DNA from: Thermoproteota archaeon | GTDB taxonomy: Archaea > Korarchaeota > Korarchaeia > Korarchaeales > Korarchaeaceae | Reading direction: 5' to 3' | DNA length: 28,715 nt | Assembly: GCA_027492205.1 (NCBI GenBank) | Contig: JAOZFN010000012.1 | Span: 85,340 to 114,054, forward strand | The notes under the pieces: generated by a model | The model's input: the letters and a program-made list of their open reading frames with translations, nothing else | Told to the model about the DNA's origin: nothing | Database searches by the model: none | Shown here: positions 1 to 22,755 of the stretch, piece after piece | Numbering within the stretch: the first letter of the stretch is position 1 | How the letters are laid out: every line of letters starts with the position of its first letter | Program-made: the position numbers and the translations under genes

Positions 1-830
1 TTGGAGGGCTCTGATTGCTTCCAACCCTGGGCGACGCTTGGTTCAACATCACCAACCCCTGCGCTTTCAATCTCTGCCCTTGGAGGGCTCTGATTGCTTC
101 CTTCAATTACCCCTATGGCTTCAGGATGGTTCCCATGAAGTATGACTCTTTCAATCTCTGCCCTTGGAGGGCTCTGATTGCTTCGATCAGGCTGTCGACC
201 GGGTTCAACGCCTCGAGCACCCTGGACTTTCAATCTCTGCCCTTGGAGGGCTCTGATTGCTTCAGGATCGACTGAATGCCCGCGCCGCTGGCCGGCTCTG
301 GCATCTCCTTTCAATCTCTGCCCTTGGAGGGCTCTGATTGCTTCAAGAAGGAAAAAGTCACCTTCGACGATGTCATCAGGTACCTGTCTTTCAATCTCTG
401 CCCTTGGAGGGCTCTGATTGCTTCGAACGCGAAATCCTTCTGGCCATCGCGGAGATCCTCCATGACGACCTTTCAATCTCTGCCCTTGGAGGGCTCTGAT
501 TGCTTCGCGTTCGCGGAGCAGGTGTAGGTTATCTCCACCTTCACCACGTCCTTTCAATCTCTGCCCTTGGAGGGCTCTGATTGCTTCGGAGATAGGTGGG
601 GCGCTGGTCGTGATGCACAAGGCGCGCTTTCAATCTCTGCCCTTGGAGGGCTCTGATTGCTTCGCTCTCGCTGTCCTATCAGCCGTCCCATGGCGCCCCG
701 AAACTCGCCTGCTTTCAATCTCTGCCCTTGGAGGGCTCTGATTGCTTCGCCGGAGGTGGTCGTGCCGTGGGCCCAGGCCTGACCGCGCCCCCGCTTTCAA
801 TCTCTGCCCTTGGAGGGCTCTGATTGCTTC
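1..830 (-). CRISPR. CRISPR array 1: 10 full 37-nt repeats plus 1 partial at the window edge, 10 spacers (39-48 nt)
   Basis: Identical repeats CTTTCAATCTCTGCCCTTGGAGGGCTCTGATTGCTTC start at 64, 148, 227, 308, 388, 470, 551, 627, 712 and 794 (partial at 1-21). On the minus strand the repeat ends in the canonical ATTGAAAG and contains a GCCCT-CCA-AGGGC stem. The leader lies to the right. Confidence 0.99.
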
Positions 831-7627: not shown

Positions 7628-8320
7628 TTAGTGGCCTCTGCGTGAGTTTATGGCGATTCTCCCGAGCAAAGAAAGATCCCTTGAGCCATCCACGATTCCC
7701 CTCTCCCTGAGGGCGGATATGTGCCTGTAGACGGTGGACGCGTTCACCCCGAGCCGGACCGCGATCTCCCTTGGCCCAAGGCCCTGAGCCAACATCTTTA
7801 GTATCTTCAGCTTCTCCTCTCCGATCTCCGGCTCCAGCGGCGCCAAGTCAACATCCGTCGGCTGACCCGTGAAGGGGTCCACTGCCACCACCCTCCCCCC
7901 TGCCAAGCAGACCGCGTAAACCATGGCTAGGCTGGCAAAGGATCTCCACTGGGAGGGCAAGGCCGCCACCTCGAGCCCCTCGTCCTGCAGCGACTTGATC
8001 CTTCCGTAGAAGAACTCCGCTGCCTCCTCAAATCCCCGGGCCTTCAGCCTCGTCTTAGCGACGACCATCCCCGGGGAGAGCCTTGAGACTACTCTGGCTA
8101 GGCTGTCGGCTGACTCCCTTATCAGGGAGTCCCAGGGCGGGAGGGCGGGAGGCAGGAAGAGCTCAACCCTCTCCACGAAGGACAGATCGAGCTGAATTAG
8201 AGAGGAAACAAGCTGGTACCTCAGGGGCGGCACCGTAGCCAGGACGACAAGCCTCGTTCGCCCGGGAGGTTCGGCAGGGAGTACCAATCGCCCGCCCCTC
8301 GAACGGGATTTACTGCTCAC
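7628..8320 (-). CDS. Csa3-like CARF + HTH regulator (divergent CARF)
   Basis: Rossmann-like N-terminus (RLVVLATVP, RVELFLP, EVAALPSQWRSFASLAMVYA) and clear HTH GPREIAVRLGVNASTVYRHISALRERGIV; GTGA-coupled to cmr6. Confidence 0.75.
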   Translation of the reverse strand: MSSKSRSRGGRLVLPAEPPGRTRLVVLATVPPLRYQLVSSLIQLDLSFVERVELFLPPALPPWDSLIRESADSLARVVSRLSPGMVVAKTRLKARGFEEAAEFFYGRIKSLQDEGLEVAALPSQWRSFASLAMVYAVCLAGGRVVAVDPFTGQPTDVDLAPLEPEIGEEKLKILKMLAQGLGPREIAVRLGVNASTVYRHISALRERGIVDGSRDLSLLGRIAINSRRGH

Positions 8321-11610: not shown

Positions 11611-12752
11611 GACACCACCTCCGAGTCGAAGCTCGGACTCGCACGAACCACCATGGGAGAGCCGAACCCCCTCTCCCAGAACAGAGACCTCCTCCAGAAG
11701 GCGAGGGTCAGCTCAAGCCGACTAGCCGGCTCGCCGAGCCTCACGTAATACACCGATCCAGGTGGGGCGGCCGAGTACATGGGGCGCGCCCTTCTAGCCT
11801 TGAGGCTCCAGCCGCTCAGCTTCCATGGCCTTCCGACTATCCAGAGGATGTGACCGTTCACCCGAACGTACTCCGGCCTGCCTGGTAGTCCTGACAGATC
11901 CGGGTGAGAGACCCCTACTCGCCCGTCCCTGTAGATGGCGGGGCTGAGTAGGACCAGCTTCACCACGTCTCCCGCCTCGAGTTCCTCATCCTGAAGCCAC
12001 GGAAGGGGCTCGGCCATGGTGTGAGTCGTGACCCGGGCTGGTCGGCCCTCTCCACCGAGGCGGACTATTCCATCCAGTTCTCTGAGTTCCTCTCCGCTCT
12101 TCCTCGAGATCAGGGCGCAGAACGAGATATCGGCCACCCCGCCGTTGACCATCACTTTAGGAGGCCTGAGGTGAACGCTCGTGTAGAGGAGGCCTTGCTC
12201 CGACGTTCCCGTTGTCTCGCTGATCGTGAGGCCTAGCCTCCTCTCCTCCGAGAGGGAGACGACATCCCTTACGGGATCTCCTATCTCCGGTTTCTCCTTC
12301 AGGTAAGCCCTGAGGGCCTCGAGGGAGAGCATGCCGCTCACGGGCTCGTCCTCCTTGGTCTGGACGATCGGAGGAAGCCAGCGGTGGTAGCCGCGGGCAT
12401 CCCTCTGAACTGGCTGCAGGACTCGGAGCGCCTTCCTCCCCCCAACGTCTCTCACGACGACATCCTGCGGGGGCCAGAACCAGAGCCTTCCGCTGCATCG
12501 TAGGAAGGGCCCGTAGAACGTGAAGTCGGTTGCCTCTCCACGCTCCTCCTCTGCCTCGCTCTTGCTCGCGCCGGCTGAACTCCAGTCTCCCGTGAGGGCG
12601 GCGTAGAGATATAGAGCGGCCCCCGACAGCGTCCAAGGAGTCGGAAACCGAAGCGTCGAACCCTGACCACCCCTACCCAGCCCTCTCGAGTCCCCAAAGA
12701 AAGAGGAGTCATAAGGGATCAGCTCGAGTAGAAGGGAAGGGATGCCCACCAT
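11607..12752 (-). CDS. cmr3: Cmr3
   Basis: PYDSSFFG, FPTPWTLSGA, RLGGEGR, LLSPAI, SGW, PPGSVYY and GFG motifs. Confidence 0.95.
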   Translation of the reverse strand: MVGIPSLLLELIPYDSSFFGDSRGLGRGGQGSTLRFPTPWTLSGAALYLYAALTGDWSSAGASKSEAEEERGEATDFTFYGPFLRCSGRLWFWPPQDVVVRDVGGRKALRVLQPVQRDARGYHRWLPPIVQTKEDEPVSGMLSLEALRAYLKEKPEIGDPVRDVVSLSEERRLGLTISETTGTSEQGLLYTSVHLRPPKVMVNGGVADISFCALISRKSGEELRELDGIVRLGGEGRPARVTTHTMAEPLPWLQDEELEAGDVVKLVLLSPAIYRDGRVGVSHPDLSGLPGRPEYVRVNGHILWIVGRPWKLSGWSLKARRARPMYSAAPPGSVYYVRLGEPASRLELTLAFWRRSLFWERGFGSPMVVRASPSFDSEVVS

Positions 12753-15700
12753 CAGCCGCTCACCCCCCTCAAGACCTCTGAGAGATCCATCCTGAGCGCC
12801 TTGTTGAAGTTCAGGGCCTTCCTCACGCTTATTCCCCCTTGAGTTGAGGAGAACCGCCAGTAGAGCCCTAAGAGTTCTTGAACAACTCCAGAGGCCTCGT
12901 ACTCTTTTCCAGAACTGGGATGAATGTTTCTAGCTATCGCCATGTGGATCAGTAAGCGCACTATCCCCAGGTTCTCCTGGGCTACGGCTCCGGCCGCGGA
13001 GACCGTGCGGTCGACCAGCCCGAGGATCTCCTCGATGTCTCTGACCGCGTTCTTGCTCAGCCGAACGCCTCCCACGCCGCGAGTGAGTTCCAGGATCCTC
13101 CTCTCCACCGCCTCAAGGGGTCCCCCGCGCGGCTCCGCACACGTACTTCTGGGATCAGCGACCTCGACCTCCCTGAGGCTTAGAACCGCCCGCTCCTCGG
13201 CGAGAGATCTGGATAGTTTCGTGAGGGATATCCGGCCTTTCTCCCGGAGGTCGGCTTCCTCTCCTTCCAGAACCTCTCCCTTGGCTACCTTCTCTTCCAG
13301 CCTAACTCTCTCCAGAGACTCCCACATGGGAACTAGCCTGTGAGAGATCACCAGTCCCGCGCTAAGAGTGGCTAAGCGGCCCATCCCTAGAGAAAGGCCC
13401 TCTTCAGTTGAGACCACTTCCGCAGAGAAGACGCGGTATATCCTCTCTACCACGGATAACGGAGTGTTCTCCGGATCATTTGCAGGTATGACGGCGAGCA
13501 GGTCGTCGCCCCCGGAGTAGAACACCACGCCGCCTGCCTCCTCGATAAGACGCGGGAAGACCCTTCGCGCTAGCCCAGCCAGTATCCTGCTCAGGGAGCG
13601 GTGGAGAGATGGGGTCATGAGTCGATGCGTCTCAACGACCCTGGGGCTCGCCCCGCTCTCTCTGAACCTGGCGACCACCCGGGGGTGTAGCCGGCCCCCG
13701 ATCATCAGGCCCAGCTGGGCGAACTTCCTTCCGGAGATCCAGAGGCCCATGTCGTCCCCGTCCGCCTTGATGAAGGCCACGTAGTTCGAGGGAGCCCTCG
13801 CCACGCCCCTGGACTTCATCTCGTTTGCTAGCAGGTCTAAGACGTTCAAGACTGCCTTCACGGCCTCTCTGCCATCTCTCAGAAGGTTGGTAAGTTCGTC
13901 CCCCGTAATTACATCCTCAAGCAGTTCTAGATCACGCAGGGCAGCCTCCCACTTGGCCCTATACAGGAAAGACCCGGGAATCCCAATCCTCTCCAGCCTC
14001 TCCCTGATCGCGCTCAGGAACTCGCCCTCGACCGCCTTATCTCCCTCGATCTCGGAGAGTATCTGCCAAGCGTCCGACTCGACCCCCGCGAGGCCGCTGA
14101 GTCTCAGTTCTGAGAGGCGGGGGATTCCAGCGAGCCTGTCTGAAAGCCTGACGATGGCGGCGAGGGCTTCTGAGACCTTCATCTTGATGCTCTCTCTGAG
14201 GTCCTCGGGAAGCCCCTCGAGGGAAGACCTGAAGGGCCTGGCCGCTATGTCATCCAGGGTCGGGAGGGGACCTAGCTCAGAGAGAATCACCCCCCGCCTG
14301 AGGATGCGCTCTAGCTTGTCTCTGGGGCTCGCGGCGCCTCCCCTTTGCAGAATTCTGCTCCACAGCCTGATCAGAATCTGATACCTCCTGAACGCTCTCT
14401 TAATTAGGCAAACTGCGCAGAGTGGCTCTTCAGGTGATAGGAGCCAACCGACGGGTGAACCCCTCTGCCTGAGCTGCCTCACAAGCTCTCTCCATCCCTC
14501 CTCTGCACGGCTCGCTCCAACCGCAGGCAGGACGAGGGGGTTTCTAGAGCCACAGAGCCTGCATCTCCTGGAGACCTTCAAACCTCCCTCTTCTGATGGC
14601 TCCTCATGCTCAGAGAACGGTTCCGCAAGCTTCTCGGCTCTCACCCTAATTGCAAGCACGGAGTACGCTACAGGGTAGAAGAGGGTCGGTCGGGGCACGT
14701 AGCCGTGCCGGAGATCCTCCATCAGCACGGTAGTCAGGTCATCTAGCACGGATCCTGAATCTCGCAAGCTTTCATCCCATCCAAGGGCCTTTGTGGGTAT
14801 CAGGTTCTTCAGGGTCTCCCGAACGGCCTCCCTTACCTCAGAGTCGCTGAGCCCTTGGCAGCGCTCCCTCAGTTCGCTCCAGAACTCCCTCACATCTTCT
14901 AGTGTGACGTGAGCGACCCTTACTTGAAGGGGGTACGGCAGCCCATCCCCGAGCTGGCGACGCCACTGGAAGGAAATCTCCGAACTCAGTTCACCGAAGA
15001 TCTCCTCTAGGACGATGTCGCCCAGACTCTTTAACAGAGACTGGATCGCCTCTTTGACTCTCCTCTCTAGCTCCCCTACCCTTTCTTCGGGTGCGACAAA
15101 GAGGAACGTTGCAGGGACGGCCGGCACAAGGAGGTTCTTTACCAGAGCATTGAGTCCGTCCCCTCCGCCCCAGAGGGACGTCAGCTCCTCGTCGGTGAGG
15201 ACCCCCTCCGAGTAGAGGTAGAGATCCACAAGAGGGTCCCCGCGGAGATCTGGATAAATCAGTGCGTCGGGTCCAAGCTCGCGAACAACCATCATTATTC
15301 CGGCCATGGCCAAAGAACTCACCAGATAGCTGGAGGCCCAGAGATCCCTGACCCTCCTGCTCTGCCGCAGGAACTCCTGCACGCCGCCTATGTCCACCAT
15401 CACCAGCGCGGGCCTATCGACTGTGAAGGCGGCGGTGGTCACAAGGTGATCGAATATGCTGTGATCCGGCAGCCTGGAGTCGGCCGGGACAAGATGAGTC
15501 AGAGAGAACTCAGCCGGACCTCCAGGCTTAATCCCGACTGACTCAACCCATAGGCGAGGGAGCATTCTCCAGAGGTAGAGGAACTCCCTGCGTCTATCTC
15601 CACTCAGCCTGCGGTGAACGACACGGAGCCTCTGAGACAGCGCCTCCTGCAAGTCGGCCAGGGACCTGTGGAGTAGGTTCGTTCTTAGGACGTCCCTGAG

Positions 15701-16027
15701 CTTCTGAGAACCGTGCAAGCACGGCTTCCCCAAGAGCTCAGCGGAACTCATGGGGTGAAAGAAGATCTCGGCTGGCCCTTCCTCGCGCTCCCCGCTACCC
15801 CACTGAACCTCGCCCGTCTCTTCCCTTGAGAGAACAGTCCTATCCGCTGCTGAAGCCAACCAGTCGGCCTCTCTGACCCTATCCAGTCCAGAATCCGAGA
15901 GACCCAACGAGGACCTGAGCTCTTGGGCTGCACGCTCGTGCGCCCTGATCCCGAGGACTTTGAACGGGGGGTCGTGGAGGAGGGCGCATAGCTTGACTTC
16001 CCAGTAATTGGGGGGGCTTGCGCCCAT
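12752..16027 (-). CDS. cas10: Cas10/Cmr2 with HD domain, Zn finger and intact GGDD cyclase motif
   Basis: LLHDPPFK, PADSRLPDHSIFDHL, GVQEFLRQSRRVRDLWASSYLVS, CRLCG/CAVC, KADGDDMG and YSGGDDLLA motifs. Confidence 0.97.
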   Translation of the reverse strand: MGASPPNYWEVKLCALLHDPPFKVLGIRAHERAAQELRSSLGLSDSGLDRVREADWLASAADRTVLSREETGEVQWGSGEREEGPAEIFFHPMSSAELLGKPCLHGSQKLRDVLRTNLLHRSLADLQEALSQRLRVVHRRLSGDRRREFLYLWRMLPRLWVESVGIKPGGPAEFSLTHLVPADSRLPDHSIFDHLVTTAAFTVDRPALVMVDIGGVQEFLRQSRRVRDLWASSYLVSSLAMAGIMMVVRELGPDALIYPDLRGDPLVDLYLYSEGVLTDEELTSLWGGGDGLNALVKNLLVPAVPATFLFVAPEERVGELERRVKEAIQSLLKSLGDIVLEEIFGELSSEISFQWRRQLGDGLPYPLQVRVAHVTLEDVREFWSELRERCQGLSDSEVREAVRETLKNLIPTKALGWDESLRDSGSVLDDLTTVLMEDLRHGYVPRPTLFYPVAYSVLAIRVRAEKLAEPFSEHEEPSEEGGLKVSRRCRLCGSRNPLVLPAVGASRAEEGWRELVRQLRQRGSPVGWLLSPEEPLCAVCLIKRAFRRYQILIRLWSRILQRGGAASPRDKLERILRRGVILSELGPLPTLDDIAARPFRSSLEGLPEDLRESIKMKVSEALAAIVRLSDRLAGIPRLSELRLSGLAGVESDAWQILSEIEGDKAVEGEFLSAIRERLERIGIPGSFLYRAKWEAALRDLELLEDVITGDELTNLLRDGREAVKAVLNVLDLLANEMKSRGVARAPSNYVAFIKADGDDMGLWISGRKFAQLGLMIGGRLHPRVVARFRESGASPRVVETHRLMTPSLHRSLSRILAGLARRVFPRLIEEAGGVVFYSGGDDLLAVIPANDPENTPLSVVERIYRVFSAEVVSTEEGLSLGMGRLATLSAGLVISHRLVPMWESLERVRLEEKVAKGEVLEGEEADLREKGRISLTKLSRSLAEERAVLSLREVEVADPRSTCAEPRGGPLEAVERRILELTRGVGGVRLSKNAVRDIEEILGLVDRTVSAAGAVAQENLGIVRLLIHMAIARNIHPSSGKEYEASGVVQELLGLYWRFSSTQGGISVRKALNFNKALRMDLSEVLRGVSG

Positions 16028-16152: not shown

Positions 16153-17382
16153 ATGGTCGAACCTTCTAACCGAGAGAATGGGCCTAGAGAAGAAGAAAGG
16201 GCCTGCCTCTACCTGGAGAAGTGGTTTCGGGTGTTTTACAGGGATCTCACGGCCGCGCAGGGGGCGGCCTTGGAGTTGGACGCCCTAGCGGTGGTCGACC
16301 CGGCCTCTCTGCTCTGCTCTCCTGATCTGGAGTCAATCCGCCCGATGATAGTCCAAGTGGAGGAGAAGCGTAAGATAGGGAGTGAGGGCGTGCTAGACGC
16401 GTACAGGAGCCTAGGCATGTACCCTGGCGGGCGCCCCTTCATCCTCCTCGGGGATGGGGTAACGATGCAGGACGCGAAGAACTCTCTCGGTGGACTGGGC
16501 AGGTTGCAGCTCCCTCCGATTGTCGTCGGACCCCGATTGATTCAGGTCCTCCGTGTCCAGCGGCTGGACGAGAAGTATGGTGAGGTAGCAAATCTCCTGA
16601 AGATACTTCTCCTAACCTCGGCCTGCGGACTGTCTTTGGATGTTGTAGAGAAGATGTTGGCCTGGGCCAACCTCAAGACCATGCCGAGATTGAGGTTTCT
16701 GCTGAGCCTCCTCCGCCCAACAACGCTTGAAGAGTTCAGGAGGGAGTTACCCCAGATCCTTGATGAAATGAAATCGGAGATTCAAGAACTCGATGTAGGC
16801 AGTACAGAGACCAGATCAGAGTGGGGAGGAAACTCCCCTCCCACGCTCTTCGCCCTCGTGGGTATCGCCCGCTCTCCCAGGCTAATGAAAAGATTCTGGG
16901 CGCCTGCCGCCGCCGAGTTTGTCCTTCGCCGAAGATACAAGCGGGTCTTTGTGATCCACTCCGGAGATGAGAGGAGTGAAGAGACCGCGAAGAGGCTGGG
17001 GGAACTCGTAGAAGATCGGCTCAAACGCTCGGGCGCGGAGGCCCAGTTACTGGTCTATGGGCCAAGCAGAGAGTCTCGGGAATCCATTTTGAGATCCTAC
17101 CTGAGCGCGATAAGTCAAGTTGTAAGAGATTTTGGGGAGATAACGCTCTACCCGATAGATCTGGCATTCATTGGAGAGCTGGAAAAGACTGTCGTGCTGA
17201 AGATCGTTGAGAGCCTCTCGTCACGTGGGCATCTCCAACTAGAGGGCGGGGGTGGAAGCCTTGGGGTGTCAAATCTCTTCTGCGGGATTCACGGGATCAC
17301 ATGCATAGAAGCGGGGGGAGGTGAGGAGTTCCTTGAGCACGGGTTCATATTCGAGCGAGTTTGGCCTCTTGGCCAGGCTTAG
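16153..17382 (+). CDS. Hypothetical protein; putative N-terminal PD-(D/E)xK (Mrr-like) nuclease + C-terminal CARF-like domain
   Basis: 409-aa ORF with GGTGA RBS. Nuclease-like EERACLYL...ELDALAV...IVQVEEK...RPFILL. CARF-like TLFALVG...KRVFVIHSGDERSEETAKRL...LQLEGGGG. The ORF is solid; the domain calls are inferred. Confidence 0.6.
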   Translation: MVEPSNRENGPREEERACLYLEKWFRVFYRDLTAAQGAALELDALAVVDPASLLCSPDLESIRPMIVQVEEKRKIGSEGVLDAYRSLGMYPGGRPFILLGDGVTMQDAKNSLGGLGRLQLPPIVVGPRLIQVLRVQRLDEKYGEVANLLKILLLTSACGLSLDVVEKMLAWANLKTMPRLRFLLSLLRPTTLEEFRRELPQILDEMKSEIQELDVGSTETRSEWGGNSPPTLFALVGIARSPRLMKRFWAPAAAEFVLRRRYKRVFVIHSGDERSEETAKRLGELVEDRLKRSGAEAQLLVYGPSRESRESILRSYLSAISQVVRDFGEITLYPIDLAFIGELEKTVVLKIVESLSSRGHLQLEGGGGSLGVSNLFCGIHGITCIEAGGGEEFLEHGFIFERVWPLGQA

Positions 17383-18715
17383 GGACCCAGTCGTAGACCG
17401 GGCAGATGCCACGCGCTGGAGACTTCCAGACCTCTTCTTTTGGTTCGCCTCCGGTATTACGGCGGCCGCGTTCAGTGGTAGGGACGACATCAGCGACGTC
17501 GGAGCATGGGTGAGGGCCTTCGCGGGAGGTGGCGCTGGATCAGTGAACTCACGCTTGGTCGTGTGGCGAAAGAGGAGGGGAGTCGTCGAGTGGAAAAGAA
17601 TCGCATTCTTGAGGTGGCTTGAGCTGACCCCGTTCTCCATGTTCTCTCCCGACTCTCTCCTCTTCCCAGTCAGTGGGGAGTTGGAAGGGGGGGTGGAACT
17701 CCACGCGCTACTGAAACAGGGCTTCATTGTGGACGAGTCGGTGCTCCCCGATAGAGAACTCCAGGTATCCCCGGTAGGTCTCCTCTCTACAGCGGTACCC
17801 GCAGTGAGGTCGGGGATGAGTCTCATAATAGGAGCCCTGCAGGCTGCCCTAGCCAGAATTCTGTGGATCAGGACCGGACTGGGGCAGTTTGACGTAAAGG
17901 TGGCTGTTGGAGATGCCATAGCCTCCCTGCTTGGATACTTCAGGATCAACCTGAGGTCTAGCCCACCGTCAGCGATTGGCGACTTCACTACGAGCGTCAT
18001 CTCCCCGATAGATCGAGGACTGGCTCAGGCCGGTCTGCGAGGGCTCGTCGCAATTCTGGACAAGGGGTCCGTCTGGTCCCAGCCAAGTCAGGGTGAGCTG
18101 ACGTGGCTCGAGGGCTTCCTCAGGTGGACTTCCGACGTGCCTGAAGGAGGATTCAACGTCAGAATACCAAGACAGCTGCTGGGAAGGATCATTAAGGTTA
18201 GCAGAGAGAGAATGTCAAGGGACGGATGGATAGAGAGTTTCATCTCAAAGGCGGCAGATGAAGTGGCCGAACTCGCGGGAGGACGGGGAGCCGAAACCGG
18301 GATTGTTGTCGAGTTCTCCGAGCAGATGAACCTCATTGACCTGTACGTTTTAGATCGGGCCTTGGGAGAAAGTTTAAGAGAGGTCATTGCAATATTCACC
18401 CCCCTCTCCCTGCTTACGAGCTTCCCCCACCTCTATCAGTCGGCGAACTACCGGGAGGTCACCGGACGGGAACTCAGGCTAGGAGTGGGTCCACTTGGAG
18501 TCACGTGCATACTGTCCTCGGGAACCGACAGATGGATACACGAGAAGGCCGTGGGATGGGCCCTTCGTTCGCTCAAGGAAAGGGGGTACTCCAATATCGT
18601 CTACTGGCCGAACGGATCGACGCTTCAGGTCGCGGTGGGTCGCCTAGTTGCGGAGAGGGAGAGCGCAACAGTCCTCCCTCCGGCAGCGGCCCTAGGGAGG
18701 TTTGGAGAGAAATGA
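17321..18715 (+). CDS. Hypothetical protein; possible internal wHTH + C-terminal CARF-like domain
   Basis: 464-aa ORF (start could be TTG 17369). Wing-like ALLKQGFIV...LQVSPVG. Rossmann-like GIVVEFS, REVIAIFTPLS and NIVYWPNGSTLQVAVGRLVAERE. Confidence 0.55.
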   Translation: MRSSLSTGSYSSEFGLLARLRDPVVDRADATRWRLPDLFFWFASGITAAAFSGRDDISDVGAWVRAFAGGGAGSVNSRLVVWRKRRGVVEWKRIAFLRWLELTPFSMFSPDSLLFPVSGELEGGVELHALLKQGFIVDESVLPDRELQVSPVGLLSTAVPAVRSGMSLIIGALQAALARILWIRTGLGQFDVKVAVGDAIASLLGYFRINLRSSPPSAIGDFTTSVISPIDRGLAQAGLRGLVAILDKGSVWSQPSQGELTWLEGFLRWTSDVPEGGFNVRIPRQLLGRIIKVSRERMSRDGWIESFISKAADEVAELAGGRGAETGIVVEFSEQMNLIDLYVLDRALGESLREVIAIFTPLSLLTSFPHLYQSANYREVTGRELRLGVGPLGVTCILSSGTDRWIHEKAVGWALRSLKERGYSNIVYWPNGSTLQVAVGRLVAERESATVLPPAAALGRFGEK

Positions 18716-18903
18716 GGGCGCGTAAGAAGAGAGGGCGGGGGCGTGGCGCAAGGGCCTTGGGAGCCTACCGTGCAACCACTCCCGAGCGCCCCCGTCCGTC
18801 GACAATGAAGAGTTACTCAGATAAAAGAGTGCGCTGCCTCCCCGGGCCAGCGAGTTGGTGTCTAATGCGGGCCGCACCGAAGGGCTACTCGAGTCGGTGC
18901 GTA

Positions 18904-20301
18904 ATGTCTCTCGGGAGAGTTGTATTCACTGGAAGGTCTGTTGCGCCAGATGGTGCACGGCCCGCCCCGAGGATCATCAGGAGATCGCTTTCCAAGCTCG
19001 TTGAGGTTCTAGGCTTCAACGGAGATGCCTATGTGTACGTCAGCAGAAGAAAAGTCAGAGAGGCCCCCTGGCGAGAGATGGGTCTGGCTAAGCCCCCGAC
19101 CCTAGAGGTTAGGTTCTACCCCTGGGGATTCACTTCGTTCTGGGTGAGGACGGAGGTTCACAGGCGAGTGGGGCTCGAGGACCTAGCCGACCTTTGGGGA
19201 TCTGTCGCCGTCAAGATGCGGGGCCTTATAAGATCCGAGGGGACGAGAATCGGTGCTAAGAACGGGTCTAAGCTGTTTTCGCTGGTGAATGTGGTTCGCG
19301 GTTATGTGTCTGAGAGGGGGTGGGACAGGGCCGTGGTGTTCAAGCTAACGGCTCCCCTCGTAAGGAAGGAGGTCTCGCGCAGCCACGCAGAGACGCGACT
19401 GACCGAACTCAAGTTACGAAGTCCTGGAGACGTGTTCGCGCTCAGCGAGTTCGGCGTCTTTGCGTACTTTCCAAGTTTGACCGGCAGATCTGGTCACCGA
19501 GCCCGTAAAAAGCTCCGAAGGAGTGTGGAGTATGCGGCGGACCTCGCACTCGCCCAGAGGCTAATAGGAGATAACCCAAACATCTTGGCCGAGAGAAAGG
19601 TTGCCGATAACCTCATCTTCTTAGCCCCCGGCGCCATCACGGCCAGAAGGGAAGGTATATGTCTGGACGGTTTCTTTTCTTTCATCTACAAGTCGATCTC
19701 AGGGAAACTAAACTCCGCTGAGGCCTTTTTGAGGGCGATCTCACACATTAGGCTGATTTTTCCCCCGAGGATACTTGATCTCGGGAGGCTCTACTTGGGG
19801 ATGGCGAATCTAGGCCTCGACTCTCCCGTTGCTAGCGATGTCGCCTTTGCGGCGCTCGGAAGGGAGGAGTTCGACGTCGTCCTCCTGCTAGCCATCAAGG
19901 AGATAGTTGACGAGGAGGTGGCGGAACCCTCTCTAAAGGCCAAAGCACTTTGCGAGGCCGCGCGGCAGTTTGGGCTGTCTCAACCACCCAGAATATCTGA
20001 GCGATCACTTGCAAAGCGCCTTGAGTCCCGAGAGGATATCAAGGGCAGCCTGTCGATACCAGAGATCTGCCTAGTGCTCACTCGCATCGACGAGAGCGTG
20101 CTGTATGCCAGCGGAGGAGGACTCATGAACGGACTTGTGGCAAAGGGGTACGTCAGGAGGTGTGAAGTTGGAAGAGCTGGTAAGGGGGTCCCAAAGGTCG
20201 AAGTTTACATTTTGACATGGTTGCCCCAGCTAAGCGATCTCAAGAGCGTAATAAGAGAGCCAGTGAGGTCAATAGCCTGGAGAGTTCTCCGCCGAGACTG
20301 A
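18904..20301 (+). CDS. Hypothetical protein with C-terminal winged HTH; N-terminus resembles the CorA-like soluble domain
   Basis: Long ORF, open from 18505. ATG 18904 is preferred; ATG 18712 overlapping the upstream TGA is an alternative. wHTH-like LSIPEICLVL...MNGLVAKGYVRR...VEVYILT. Confidence 0.55.
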   Translation: MSLGRVVFTGRSVAPDGARPAPRIIRRSLSKLVEVLGFNGDAYVYVSRRKVREAPWREMGLAKPPTLEVRFYPWGFTSFWVRTEVHRRVGLEDLADLWGSVAVKMRGLIRSEGTRIGAKNGSKLFSLVNVVRGYVSERGWDRAVVFKLTAPLVRKEVSRSHAETRLTELKLRSPGDVFALSEFGVFAYFPSLTGRSGHRARKKLRRSVEYAADLALAQRLIGDNPNILAERKVADNLIFLAPGAITARREGICLDGFFSFIYKSISGKLNSAEAFLRAISHIRLIFPPRILDLGRLYLGMANLGLDSPVASDVAFAALGREEFDVVLLLAIKEIVDEEVAEPSLKAKALCEAARQFGLSQPPRISERSLAKRLESREDIKGSLSIPEICLVLTRIDESVLYASGGGLMNGLVAKGYVRRCEVGRAGKGVPKVEVYILTWLPQLSDLKSVIREPVRSIAWRVLRRD

Positions 20302-21817
20302 ACTCCTGTCGCTCTTCGTCCCATAGCTCCCAGGGAATCTCCCAGTGAGACTCTAACCCGGTCAGGATGGGCTGGAACGTGGTCAACCTCTCGCCTAATA
20401 GGGCAGACAGCATTCTGGCCATTCTGAGACCCGACTCAGGCGAGACGAACACAGGACCCCAGGCGCCCCTCAATGATCCCTCTAGGTACGCTAGCACGGG
20501 GGAGGAGATTGCAGCGAGTGCATTCAGCATTAGACCAAACTCACTCTCACCCACCTCGACGTGGATGAGAGTCGGTTCTCCGAAAAACCGCCCGGTAGGG
20601 CTGTAGGACCTGTATATGACCCCCCCATCCCTGAACTTTCTTATCTTGTAGCGTACTCCCCTGAATCCCTCCTCGACGAGAGAGCTCTCAGATATGCTGC
20701 CAGTTCTGTGGATCCTCGCAAGGAGCCTCATGTCCTCCCTGCTCAGTCTCTTCCGAGCGACGGTCTCTTTTGGAGAAATGGGTCTCAACCTCGCGGGGCC
20801 ACGCAGTGCGGCGGACAGCCGGCGTCCCAGGTCGGGAACCTCTATCCTGTCCAACCGGAAGAAATATCCCTGTCTCTTCACCACGCCCACGCGGATGTCG
20901 AGGCTCTCCAAGCCCTCGATCAGCGGAAATACTAGCCTCCTCGGCACAAGAACTATCGCGTAGCTGGGTGAGCGGCTAGAGACGGTCCAGAGTATGGAGT
21001 AAGTGAGCTTAGAGCTTGCAAAGTCCTCTACCAGCCTCCTAGACGGAAGCTCACAGACAACTGTCTCCAAGCCGAGAGCCGGGAAGTTGACGTGCCAAGG
21101 TCCGGAGACCATCTCCCCGTACCTCAGCTTCTTTATCGTGCGTGACACCGTAGGCTGAGATATCCCCGTCTCCCTTGACACGTCGGAGACTAAGAGATCC
21201 GGATTTCTGGCAAGGATCCTGAGAACCGCCATTCCCCTCCTGCTCAGATGCGGCTTTGTGTCGGATAAGCTGGCCAGCAGTATCCTGAAGTAGAGGGAGA
21301 AACTTACCTTATCAGTCAACTCCTCCGCGGCGGCCATCAGGTGAACGGCTTGCTTCACCGTGATTAGCCGCTGGCGGGCTGGAAGTATGCCCAACAGAGA
21401 GGGGGCATCGTATAGCGGAAGGCTGGAAACCTTCACTACGTGCGTGTTCTCCCTCCACCACCCCAGACTTCCCAGGGAGTACGCCCAGGCCAGGTCCATC
21501 GTCTCTGGGACCGCTCGTAAGAACTTGGGTGGAATGAAGAGCCTGAAAGCCTCCCGCTTGACGGCCTGCCTGATTCTAGATCCTAACCTTCCACTGAAGA
21601 TGAGCCTTTGCCCATCCTCTCTAACGCCGGATCTGTAGCCTGAAGAAATCGGCTCGTCCTCAACAGTAATCTCAGGAGGTATGTCCCAGAACGGACTCAT
21701 TAGAAGCTTCCTTTGTATCTCACGCACTTCACGCTCGAGGGCCTCTCTATTCGCGAGCATCCGCGCCCTAGCGGAGTGAGACTCGCTCTGAATTAATTGC
21801 GGGGGTCTCGCGACCAC
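20240..21817 (-). CDS. Tandem Lrp/AsnC-like winged-HTH regulator with an extra N-terminal domain
   Basis: AGGAGG RBS. HTH1: LSRRGMAVLRILARNP...SDVSRETGISQPTVSRTIKKL...VNFPALGL. HTH2: LSREDMRLLARI...VRYKIRKFRDGGVI. Confidence 0.75.
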   Translation of the reverse strand: MVARPPQLIQSESHSARARMLANREALEREVREIQRKLLMSPFWDIPPEITVEDEPISSGYRSGVREDGQRLIFSGRLGSRIRQAVKREAFRLFIPPKFLRAVPETMDLAWAYSLGSLGWWRENTHVVKVSSLPLYDAPSLLGILPARQRLITVKQAVHLMAAAEELTDKVSFSLYFRILLASLSDTKPHLSRRGMAVLRILARNPDLLVSDVSRETGISQPTVSRTIKKLRYGEMVSGPWHVNFPALGLETVVCELPSRRLVEDFASSKLTYSILWTVSSRSPSYAIVLVPRRLVFPLIEGLESLDIRVGVVKRQGYFFRLDRIEVPDLGRRLSAALRGPARLRPISPKETVARKRLSREDMRLLARIHRTGSISESSLVEEGFRGVRYKIRKFRDGGVIYRSYSPTGRFFGEPTLIHVEVGESEFGLMLNALAAISSPVLAYLEGSLRGAWGPVFVSPESGLRMARMLSALLGERLTTFQPILTGLESHWEIPWELWDEERQEFSLGGELSRLLTSLALLLRS

Positions 21818-21926
21818 CTTTCCTCCTACTTATGCGGATGATAGAGAAAGCTTCGCCGGTTTTTCTGGCCAATTCAGAAGAAAATGTCCAATAATCGCGC
21901 TATTTTCCGGAAAGACAGGTGAGAAG

Positions 21927-22001
21927 ATGGGGATTGTAGTGAAGAAAATGCCACCGCCTCTGCCGCCTAGGCCCCCCGTGATTCCAGATCCCCCGGAGTG
22001 A
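21927..22001 (+). CDS. 24-aa proline-rich micropeptide MGIVVKKMPPPLPPRPPVIPDPPE
   Basis: AGGTGA RBS just upstream, AT-rich upstream region, hairpin and T tract directly after; too short for the ORF track. Confidence 0.55.
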   Translation: MGIVVKKMPPPLPPRPPVIPDPPE

Positions 22002-22048
22002 GGGATCTAGGTTTTCTCCTCTCCCCCTTTTTTGTCTTGTTTTGTTGT
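21986..22048 (+). terminator. Hairpin + oligo-T terminator
   Basis: AGATCCC(21986-92)/GGGATCT(22002-08) followed by TTTT...TTTTTTGTCTTGTTTTGTTGT. Confidence 0.55.
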
Positions 22049-22146
22049 CGGGCATTTTGGAAGTTGGGGTTGACTGGAGCTGTATGCGGCGTGAAATGAC
22101 CTCAAAAGAGGTGCAGACAGGTTCTCTGGATAAAAGCCATGGAGAC

Positions 22147-22259
22147 CGCTGCGCTGATCTTTATAAGGCGGCGCCGGCCTCCCCGATCAGCGCGCCCCTC
22201 CCGGGATCGGGCGGGTGGAGGAGGCCCTCTGGAGGATATACCCATTAGGGGGTTGGGGG
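22147..22259 (+). promoter_or_regulatory. Leader of array 2 with TATA box (TTTATAA, 22160-22166)
   Basis: Matches the reverse complement of 831-926 except for a 14-nt insertion (22185-22198) and the last few bases. Confidence 0.9.
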
Positions 22260-22755
22260 GAAGCAATCAGAGCTACGCCTTTTTTGCCCAGAACGTGCCA
22301 AGTCTATGGCGGGTTCCGGCTCCGGAAGAACGAAGCAATCAGAGCTACGCCTTTTTTGCCCAGAACGTGGGTTCCCCTTGTCGTCCAACTCCTCTTCAAT
22401 CTTCACGAAGCAATCAGAGCTACGCCTTTTTTGCCCAGAACGTTTGGAATGGGAAGCCACGCCTCGACCCCTCCCTTGCCCCTGACGAAGGAAGCAATCA
22501 GAGCTACGCCTTTTTTGCCCAGAACGTGCGAAGCGTGGATAGCAAAGAAATCGAGTCGGATCTTGAAGCAATCAGAGCTACGCCTTTTTTGCCCAGAACG
22601 TGGAGGGGGCGGAGGCGGAGGGGTGGACCCGTCGCTCGTCGCCGGGAAGCAATCAGAGCTACGCCTTTTTTGCCCAGAACGTTACCAACAGATAGATTGA
22701 GAAGCCGGTCGAGTCTAAGAAGCAATCAGAGCTACGCCTTTTTTGCCCAGAACGT
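22260..22755 (+). CRISPR. CRISPR array 2: 7 identical atypical 37-nt repeats, 6 spacers (35, 38, 47, 37, 44, 36 nt)
   Basis: GAAGCAATCAGAGCTACGCCTTTTTTGCCCAGAACGT at 22260, 22332, 22407, 22491, 22565, 22646 and 22719; unique spacers; leader homologous to leader 1. Confidence 0.97.

Follow-up and report, generated by a model that had tools for sequence, protein, structure and literature searches.

Type III CRISPR systems delegate defence to effectors that are activated by cyclic nucleotides, and every effector family discovered to date has brought to light a new way of halting infection. As set out in the available parts of PMC12669027 and PMC11229360, Cas10 makes cyclic oligoadenylate (cOA), the messenger is bound by a CARF domain, and the protein carrying that domain is activated. 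Here we describe two gene pairs, P1-P2 and P3-P4, which stand beside the cas10 gene of a type III-B system in a 28,715-nucleotide stretch of DNA (the window) from a Thermoproteota archaeon of the Korarchaeaceae (assembly GCA_027492205.1, contig JAOZFN010000012.1, positions 85,340 to 114,054), and compare them with the systems that they most resemble. Cam1 (PDB 8t64/8t65/8t66) is the best structural match to the C-terminal domain of P2 by two aligners and, according to the available part of PMC11229360, also has a C-terminal CARF domain that is preceded by the effector part. The N-terminus of Cam1 is a short transmembrane helix domain, whereas P2 has about 310 residues in this place, an identity of 13-17% and no profile match. 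Card1/Can2 (Crf4; CARF plus PD-(D/E)xK; PDB 6wxw, 7bdv), which join a cOA sensor to an enzyme in one protein, the logic that we propose for P1 and P2 as well, give the second and third best folds for P2 and are also among the matches of P1. In the aligned chains their CARF domain stands at the N-terminus, in contrast to the C-terminal position of the CARF or CARF-like domain in P2 and P1, and the Pfam profiles Card1_endonuc and CARF_Card1 match neither P1 nor P2 nor any other protein of the genome. The CARF-HEPN RNases Csx1 and Csm6 are similar to P1 and P2 in size (400-470 amino acids), type III neighbourhood and CARF or CARF-like fold, but have an N-terminal CARF domain and a HEPN motif, and no Csx1/Csm6 profile matches P1 or P2. 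A precedent for a cOA site made from two non-identical CARF domains is Can1 (PDB 6sce), which matches P2 with a Z of 9.8; however, Can1 combines two CARF domains and nuclease domains in one polypeptide, whereas the CARF-type domains of P1 and P2 are encoded by two overlapping genes. For P4, the systems to compare are the Lrp/AsnC regulators and Csa3, a CARF regulator with a winged helix-turn-helix (wHTH). Csa3/CasR helix-turn-helix (HTH) profiles match the first wHTH unit of P4 (PADLOC E 2e-6 to 1e-4), the match being to the HTH part only with no CARF domain detected. Like local cas regulators, P4 genes lie divergent from cas operons or from a leader. Unlike Csa3, P4 has 525 amino acids with two wHTH units and a 175-amino-acid extension, and an obligate-looking partner, P3, that has no counterpart in Csa3 systems.

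Coordinates are window positions unless a contig (for instance G000:C1, where G000 is the genome of the window) or a locus (L0xx) is named. The phylum was surveyed in 43 genomes including G000, among them G010, a genome of the same genus, and G007, from another family of the same order. The genes in question and their immediate neighbour are as follows.

12752..16027, minus strand: cas10/cmr2, 1091 amino acids (NCBIfam TIGR02577, E 3.3e-55), divergent from P1
16028..16152, no strand: gap of 125 bp that separates the divergent genes cas10 and P1, by direct reading
16153-17382, plus strand: P1, 409 amino acids, 125 bp from the cas10 start at 16027 on the minus strand
17333-18715, plus strand: P2, 460 amino acids by gene call (frame open from 17321), overlapping the end of P1
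18865-20301, plus strand: P3, about 478 amino acids by gene call (frame open from 18505; conservation from about 18904)
20240-21817, minus strand: P4, 525 amino acids, convergent with P3, with a 62-nucleotide overlap at the 3' end of P3

The evidence tips modestly towards two separately conserved accessory modules, P1-P2 and P3-P4, that border a type I-A/III-B CRISPR island of lower G+C content. P1 to P4 are taken to be real genes because intact homologues are found in G010, in the same gene order and with 56-76% identity (P1 56%, P2 61%, P3 67%, P4 76%). By sequence, P1 and P2 are new families. No match at E<=0.1 was obtained for P1, P2 or P3 in Pfam, NCBIfam or PADLOC, except for an irrelevant 14.7-bit NtrX match of P1, and profile searches of the PDB sequences returned nothing for the three proteins. 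An exhaustive HMMER search of 1.84 billion representatives with the P1 profile yielded four relatives at E<=0.001, word-based homologue searches with the three proteins gave same-genus relatives only, and a pattern derived from the P2 alignment, run over 185,579 species genomes, led to G010 alone. Alignment of the P1 family with the P2 family by hhalign produced nothing useful, and the language-model Atlas gave no usable match for P2. An earlier note on this DNA had not recognised the block as a described system, and this holds in that P1 and P2 match no described family. Also, neither a paired or heterodimeric CARF system nor a pair similar to P3 and P4 is mentioned in the literature searched, which includes the available parts of PMC11229360, PMC12669027 and PMC6546367. 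The unnamed clusters of the 2020 CARF classification, or another listing, might already include P1 and P2.

P1 and P2 are found as a pair and next to type III genes. In all five loci where the sequence continues, a P2-like gene directly follows the P1-like gene, and type III genes adjoin the pair wherever the context is sufficient (4/4 loci), one of these loci being of type III-D and from a different family. In three loci an overlap of 41-77 nucleotides joins the two genes, and in the other two they are 1 and 11 nucleotides apart. This is consistent with coupled expression, and the overlap makes translational coupling probable. G010 possesses a second, paralogous pair, P1'-P2', with 31% and 33% identity, which is located directly upstream of, and co-directional with, cmr4-cmr5-cmr1-cmr6-cas10-cmr3 and a 140-repeat array, and is preceded by a Csa3-like gene and a gene for a 171-amino-acid protein. 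A distant pair in G007, recognised by hhalign (95.5%, E 1.5e-8, and 95.6%, E 1.1e-8), directly precedes csm2 of type III-D, three Csx7-type RAMP (repeat-associated mysterious protein) genes and cas10. On a 3-kb metagenome contig of 34% G+C (L069), a P1-like gene is followed after 11 nucleotides by a P2-like gene (hhalign 99%, E 3e-18), and a truncated open reading frame (ORF) behind the pair has a weak match to Cmr3 of the window (E 1.4e-4 in a 42-protein set), which is a hint only. A second metagenome contig (L070) ends within a P1-like gene, and a homologue of the 171-amino-acid protein of G010 is encoded in front of it.

The proteins encoded directly before P1' and the P1-like gene of L070 (171-178 amino acids; L007:7634-8149 in G010 and L070:1791-2327) are 65% identical and have no PADLOC or NCBIfam match. 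Their stretch L-D-[IV]-S-G-x-T-Q-L-V-P-I-A-A is reminiscent of loops in CARF domains and ring nucleases. Upstream of the 178-amino-acid and P1-like genes, L070 contains an ORF of 349 amino acids with hydrophobic N-terminal segments (L070:653-1702).

Structural models place a CARF-type domain at the C-terminus of P2 and a probable one at that of P1. The AlphaFold models of the two full-length proteins were built from shallow alignments, one of 4 rows and one of 7, and the C-terminal domains are their usable parts, with predicted local distance difference test (pLDDT) values of 60-90 for residues 230-400 of P1 and 58-80 for residues 300-455 of P2. The C-terminal ~135 residues of P2 are shown by the model to adopt a predicted CARF fold. 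VIA-align matches this domain best to Cam1 (Z 13.9, root-mean-square deviation 2.3, 114 aligned residues), followed by Card1 (Z 12.1), Can2 (11.9), VC1899 (11.6) and Csm6 (11.3). The top 20 rows, with Z from 13.9 to 9.2, are all CRISPR ancillary or CARF-type entries, with VC1899 and SiRe_0806 counted as such although not by title; the first unrelated row follows at Z 8.9. With Foldseek, P2 has seven matches at E<=0.001, every one a Cam1 chain (best E 9.8e-5, probability 1.00, TM score on the target 0.55-0.70), and Card1 is next with a probability of 1.00. For P1, the C-terminal domain is probably CARF-like in the model. Its best VIA-align matches are Cami1 (Z 9.1), Cdn1 (8.4), the CARF domain of Cad1 (8.4), Csx1-Crn2 (8.1) and Cam1 (8.1), and 10/14 of the top rows, with Z from 9.1 to 7.4, are CRISPR or CARF entries by title. 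The three top clusters found for P1 in the language-model Atlas carry CARF_Card1 (score 0.86) and provide a lead only.

P1 consists of an N-terminal domain of unrecognised fold, a helical linker and the C-terminal CARF-like alpha/beta domain (about 226-409), and P2 of an N-terminal part of about 310 amino acids, also of unrecognised fold, followed by the CARF domain (about 320-455). The positions E22, F25, F28, D31, A34, A35, E41, D43 and P91 in the N-terminal domain of P1 are invariant across divergent members; the acidic set among them, E22, D31, E41 and D43, would suit a metal-dependent hydrolase. Invariant positions in the N-terminal part of P2 include R81, P100, D107, H124, P147, R159 and G161. 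In its CARF domain, the loops after four strands carry the motifs E-x-S/T-E-Q, T-P-x-S-L, L-S/T-S-G-S/T-D and G-S/T-T, which are kept in five divergent members. Three candidate activities were rejected. A PD-(D/E)xK nuclease in the N-terminal domain of P1 was dropped since the [ED][ED]K motif is not invariant once the sequences from G007, L069 and P0008 are included, and the pLDDT there is 25-45. As for a HEPN domain in P1, the sole regular-expression match, RVFVIH, sits in a strand of the CARF-like domain, and P2 and both paralogues have none. A Cam1-like transmembrane segment in P2 was discarded as well: its best 19-residue hydropathy value, 1.67, belongs to a segment that contains an arginine and is lost in the paralogue, and across the hydropathy scan the best 19-residue windows reach 1.5-1.67, have charged residues within them and are not kept in paralogues.

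The second module combines a protein of no recognised family with a predicted DNA-binding regulator. P3 is, as judged from its sequence, a new family: there are no credible Pfam matches in 14 members, and the 14-member profile reaches a best E of 0.65 against the PDB. Its C-terminal ~70 residues look winged-helix-like by eye from the alignment, which no tool supports, and in mid-protein there is a basic motif, R-x-x-R-[KR]-[KR]-[ML]-R-R ... D-[LV]-A-L-A-Q. Profile matches show P4 to be a putative DNA-binding regulator with tandem wHTH units of Lrp/AsnC or MarR type, preceded by an N-terminal extension of about 175 amino acids. The first unit matches Pfam MarR_2 at residues 196-231 (E 3e-8; MarR/HTH_24 region 192-238), and the 22-member P4 profile aligns at positions 180-291 with residues 3-118 of the 141 of LrpA (1i1g; E 8.8e-8), a match of sequence, not of fold, which spans the HTH and part of the small ligand-binding (RAM-like) domain. 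A second wHTH unit was located at profile positions 343-424 against PDB sequences, and Pfam HTH_24 is found in 16/22 members. Alignment of P4 with P3 by hhalign gave nothing useful. P3 is separated from P2 by a spacer (18716-18864) that is 150 nucleotides long in both G000 and G010. About 40 nucleotides 5' of the P3 start the spacer contains, by eye, a GATAAAAG box, which suggests that P3 has its own promoter.

P3 occurs in 14/43 phylum genomes and P4 in 28/43, with up to seven P4 matches per genome, and a P4 gene lies beside P3 wherever there is room to see, mostly in convergent orientation. Neighbours were called by comparing the ORFs of 27 loci with a home-made set of 42 reference proteins, which may miss or over-call genes. 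By this measure, 12 of the 19 places where P3 is found are next to cas or CARF genes, in five classes of arrangement and three genera; the loci are partly related, so that the independent count is five classes rather than twelve places.

Class i: cmr genes and P1-P2 (window; G010:C8)
Class ii: Csx1-like gene (RNFLAH) and CARF5-family gene (G000:C15; G008:C6; G010:C5; G011:C94)
Class iii: type I-like operon, P4, P3, then cas6 ... cas1 (G019; G016; G020:C118; G025:C98)
Class iv: III-D genes with P1/P2-like genes, P3, P4, type I-like operon (G007)
Class v: Cas3-helicase-like gene, P3, P4, Cas1-like gene (G025:C83)

Nine loci of 18-20 kb have P4 only and no cas gene except for one Cas3-helicase-like match. 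In a maximum-likelihood tree, 8/9 of these copies group together in a single clade that excludes the P3-linked ones, and none of the eight has a cas neighbour. The earlier note had named homologues lying mostly away from CRISPR loci as evidence that would speak against its reading. This was not found for P1, P2 or P3, and for P4 it is true of the solo branch only.

Several loci of these classes contain further genes. In class ii, G000:C15:33781-35915 (L031:5781-7915) encodes a 468-amino-acid Csx1-like protein and a 245-amino-acid CARF5-family protein beside a second P4/P3 pair, with no cas10 near. The two have PADLOC E values of 0.002 and 2.6e-12, respectively, and the Csx1-like protein has the motif RNFLAH and a Pfam Csx1_HEPN match of E 0.004 that is below the cut-off. 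The arrangement is kept in G008 and G010, and G011 retains the CARF5 gene at a contig end. A five-gene operon recurs by P4 at L036:12112-18902 (G007), L032:2475-9258 (G019) and L055:9457-16158 (G025). Its products have ~670, 175-190, ~440 and ~305 amino acids, the fifth being a Cas3'-like helicase, and matches in NCBIfam or Pfam were obtained for the helicase alone; the other four genes look like an unrecognised type I-like Cascade. Between cas6 and cas1, L032:13383-16837 (G019), L054 and L055 encode a conserved 462-amino-acid protein without a known family and two further proteins, one of 236 amino acids with a Csa3-type HTH and one similar to BrxC/BrxD ATPases.

Beyond P4, the window holds a very short gene and a second array.

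21927-22001, plus strand: micropeptide gene, 24 amino acids, proline-rich (MGIVVKKMPPPLPPRPPVIPDPPE), divergent from P4 and in the same place in G010
22260-22755, plus strand: array 2, seven identical 37-nucleotide repeats and six spacers of 35-47 nucleotides

The micropeptide gene was found in G000 and G010 only among the 43 genomes. The two orthologues differ at 14/75 nucleotides, with 11 synonymous and two non-synonymous codon changes. It is regarded as a real coding gene because synonymous changes dominate while the flanking DNA aligns poorly with that of G010, and this pattern of substitutions indicates that the micropeptide is under purifying selection. In these two genomes the gene would belong to the local P3/P4 unit. 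Array 2 is outside the conserved unit. Its repeat is absent from the 42 other phylum genomes at up to three mismatches, and in G010 an ABC permease gene directly follows the micropeptide gene and there is no array 2.

We hypothesize that, when the Cmr complex is on target RNA, Cas10 would make cOA as in established type III biology, that the CARF domains of P1 and P2 would bind this messenger, and that binding would turn on their large N-terminal domains, which are of no known family. Since P1 and P2 are always adjacent and are duplicated as a pair, they would act together, possibly as a hetero-oligomer. P3 and P4 we infer to be a unit that controls transcription at CRISPR and cOA-response loci, rather than one that belongs to the III-B output alone. 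In its fullest form the proposal is a hetero-oligomeric cOA receptor, in which P1 and P2 contribute a ligand site of two different CARF domains that controls one or two effector domains of wholly new fold or activity, accompanied by a hitherto unrecognised regulator, made up of P3, P4 and the micropeptide, that would link cOA-response and cas loci to transcription in this lineage; this version is put forward tentatively, and we consider it somewhat unlikely to hold in full. P1 and P2 add two families with a putative sensor that escape the present profile libraries and are unusual in their C-terminal sensor and always-paired genes. Domains of 225-310 residues without known relatives could also have a new activity. 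P3 and P4 are a candidate CRISPR-linked regulator set and a handle on the control of such loci in an archaeal phylum that has received little study. Because the families are rare, their practical importance will be small unless they turn out to work by a new mechanism.

The earlier note had seen the three co-directional ORFs, together with the HTH gene and array 2, as a multi-gene second-messenger response arm of the III-B system. Each element, from the ORFs and the double-HTH gene convergent with them to the micropeptide gene and the seven-repeat array, is indeed present at its position, the GGDD motif of Cas10 is intact (with DGDD and HD in addition), and no Csx1/Csm6 effector was found among the window ORFs scanned, the candidate being on contig C15. 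Parts of the interpretation have to be revised. A role as messenger response arm still fits P1 and P2, which are CARF or CARF-like, linked to type III and accompanied by a Cas10 with kept motifs, but not a single multi-gene unit: P1 and P2 are paired, whereas P3 starts 150 nucleotides from P2 and belongs with P4. A role of P3 and P4 as a III-B output is not supported, as the pairs are also found by type I-like operons, adaptation genes and, far from cas10, Csx1-like/CARF5 genes. Array 2 does not belong to the conserved unit, its repeat being absent from G010 and the other 41 phylum genomes. As to the responders in the window, the note was right about Csx1/Csm6 but left two Csa3-like CARF-HTH genes uncounted.

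A number of results weigh against reading P1 and P2 as cOA-activated effectors and P3 and P4 as a CRISPR-linked regulator. Overall, the two full-length models are poor (mean pLDDT 39 and 55), and the N-terminal domains are not resolved in them. The HEPN pattern R-x4-6-H is conserved in neither protein by a regular-expression scan. CARF sequence profiles (Pfam; PADLOC CARF1-9 and Csx1/Csm6/Csa3) leave both proteins unmatched at E<=0.1, with no CARF-profile match at E<=0.05 for their relatives in G007, and hhalign of the two families against the CARF5 and Csa3 alignments from G000 itself gives probabilities below 1%. The P1 model has no Foldseek match at E<=0.001, and generic folds, among them universal stress proteins and a periplasmic receptor (Z 7.7-8.0) as well as dehydrogenases, come within 1.5 Z of its CARF matches. 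The P1-P2 family is tiny, with about six distinct lineages, so that the adjacency counts come from few, partly related loci. Moreover, P3 has no cas neighbour at 7/19 places. Five of these consist of a lone weak match (G001) or stand on contigs between 1.9 and 3.8 kb long, and the remaining two are on G020:C91, of 6.7 kb, and G023:C40, of 20 kb. Complex prediction for P1 226-409 with P2 300-460 scored 0.12 and 0.03 (mark 0.32; without controls) and is neutral as to binding.

Some of these points would be accounted for if the Rossmann-like domains bind a ligand other than cOA and the pair serves type III otherwise, for instance in CRISPR RNA maturation, in complex assembly or as an unrelated nucleotide-dependent enzyme. 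The lack of sequence-level CARF membership, the overlap of the P1 fold matches with generic nucleotide-binding folds and the position of the pair as first genes of the effector operon in two loci, which is also a position of structural subunits, agree with this. We regard it as very improbable, however, as the CARF matches of P2 lie 3-5 Z above generic Rossmann folds and the Foldseek probability is 1.00. A cOA-binding role could also be one of restraint, with P1 and/or P2 acting not as immune effectors but as regulators or as dampers of the signal, be it as CARF ring nucleases or as sponges for cOA. Ring nucleases such as Sso2081 are among the structural matches of both models, the strong conservation of the P2 CARF loops is as expected for a catalytic or tight-binding pocket, general family scans of the ORFs recognised no other ring nuclease in the window and, according to the available part of PMC12669027, ring nucleases accompany an active Cas10 in most loci. 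The known ring nucleases that stand alone are small proteins, however (178-180 residues in the Sso2081 chains), and the 225-310 extra conserved residues of P1 and P2, which have invariant positions of their own, suggest an added activity. We consider a damping or regulatory role quite improbable.

The remaining alternatives concern how P3 and P4 relate to P1 and P2. In line with the earlier note, one integrated pathway could exist in which P1 and P2 sense cOA and act on P3 and P4, for instance by cleaving, releasing or modifying them, so that the output is transcriptional, by a logic analogous to that of CalpL-CalpT-CalpS or Csa3. In both G000 and G010 the four genes adjoin one another in the same order, the order of type III genes, P2-like/P1-like genes, P3 and P4 is seen again in G007, which differs in family and subtype, the second P3/P4 pair of G000 adjoins two CARF-type genes (Csx1-like and CARF5), and a CARF or Csa3-like gene lies within about 5 kb in every well-resolved class except G025:C83. 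Set against this are the pair P1'-P2' of G010, which has no P3/P4 of its own, the pair of L069 without room for more genes, the P3/P4 of genus g3 between a type I-like operon and cas6/cas1 with no P1/P2 or cas10 near, and the 150 nucleotides between P2 and P3; we think it unlikely that the modules form one pathway. Conversely, P3 and P4 could have no CRISPR role at all and be a general regulator or a selfish, addiction-type pair that piles up in variable defence islands. The P4 family is large and multi-copy (28/43 genomes, up to seven per genome) and includes the clade of eight solo copies without cas neighbours, many P3/P4 contigs are short fragments, and convergent genes with overlapping ends are known from some toxin-antitoxin-like pairs. 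Yet the P3-linked copies adjoin cas or CARF genes in five arrangements and three genera, far more than would correspond to the few per cent of a 1.9-Mb genome that is taken up by cas islands, and the P4 gene frequently points away from a cas operon or an array leader, where a local regulator is normally sited. A general or selfish role is distinctly unlikely in our view, and a putative type III-linked sensor pair beside a separately conserved, probable control unit is the reading that we retain.

The two modules lie at the edge of the CRISPR island. Its minus strand carries, in order, array 1, a Csa3 gene, the type I-A set (cas3'', cas3', cas8a2, cas5a, cas7 and csa5), a second Csa3-like gene and cmr6-cmr1-cmr5-cmr4-cmr3-cas10.

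1004-1624 and 7628-8320, minus strand: Csa3-like CARF-HTH genes, from the family scan of window ORFs
about 65-831, minus-strand side at the left of the window: array 1 (repeats)

Upstream of the window, the island contains two further arrays, cas6 and cas1. It extends over about G000:C1:70000-108000 and has 56-63% G+C per 5-kb bin compared with 66-69% in the flanks. P4 and the micropeptide gene are at its right-hand edge, and past ~23000 the G+C content climbs from 58% to 69% (genome mean 63.3%). The sole match to the Cmr2 family in the whole G000 genome is the cas10 gene at 12752..16027. Its product, with intact HD (residue 18), DGDD (756) and GGDD (839-842) motifs, is the presumed cOA synthase. 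Family searches of four and then 20 window ORFs gave no Csx1/Csm6 match, and a Csx1-like HEPN candidate is found elsewhere in G000, on contig C15. The gap between cas10 and P1 has TTAATA-type A/T boxes in both directions, promoters being identified by eye only, and GGTGA stands immediately 5' of the ATG of P1.

The spacers of array 2 have only chance matches of 13-19 nucleotides elsewhere in the genome. The first 14 nucleotides of its repeat (GAAGCAATCAGAGC) equal one end of the array 1 repeat in reverse complement, and the other 23 nucleotides are unrelated. The array 1 repeat has near-inverted ends, reading ATTGAAAG on one strand and ATTGCTTC on its complement, so that the sequence leaves it ambiguous for both arrays which strand is transcribed; a TTTATAA box seen by eye about 95 nucleotides upstream favours plus-strand transcription of array 2. 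The array that extends into the left end of the window (G000:C1:84531-86150, reaching window positions 1-811) is made up of two repeat runs with a gap of about 400 bp between them (C1:84934-85340).

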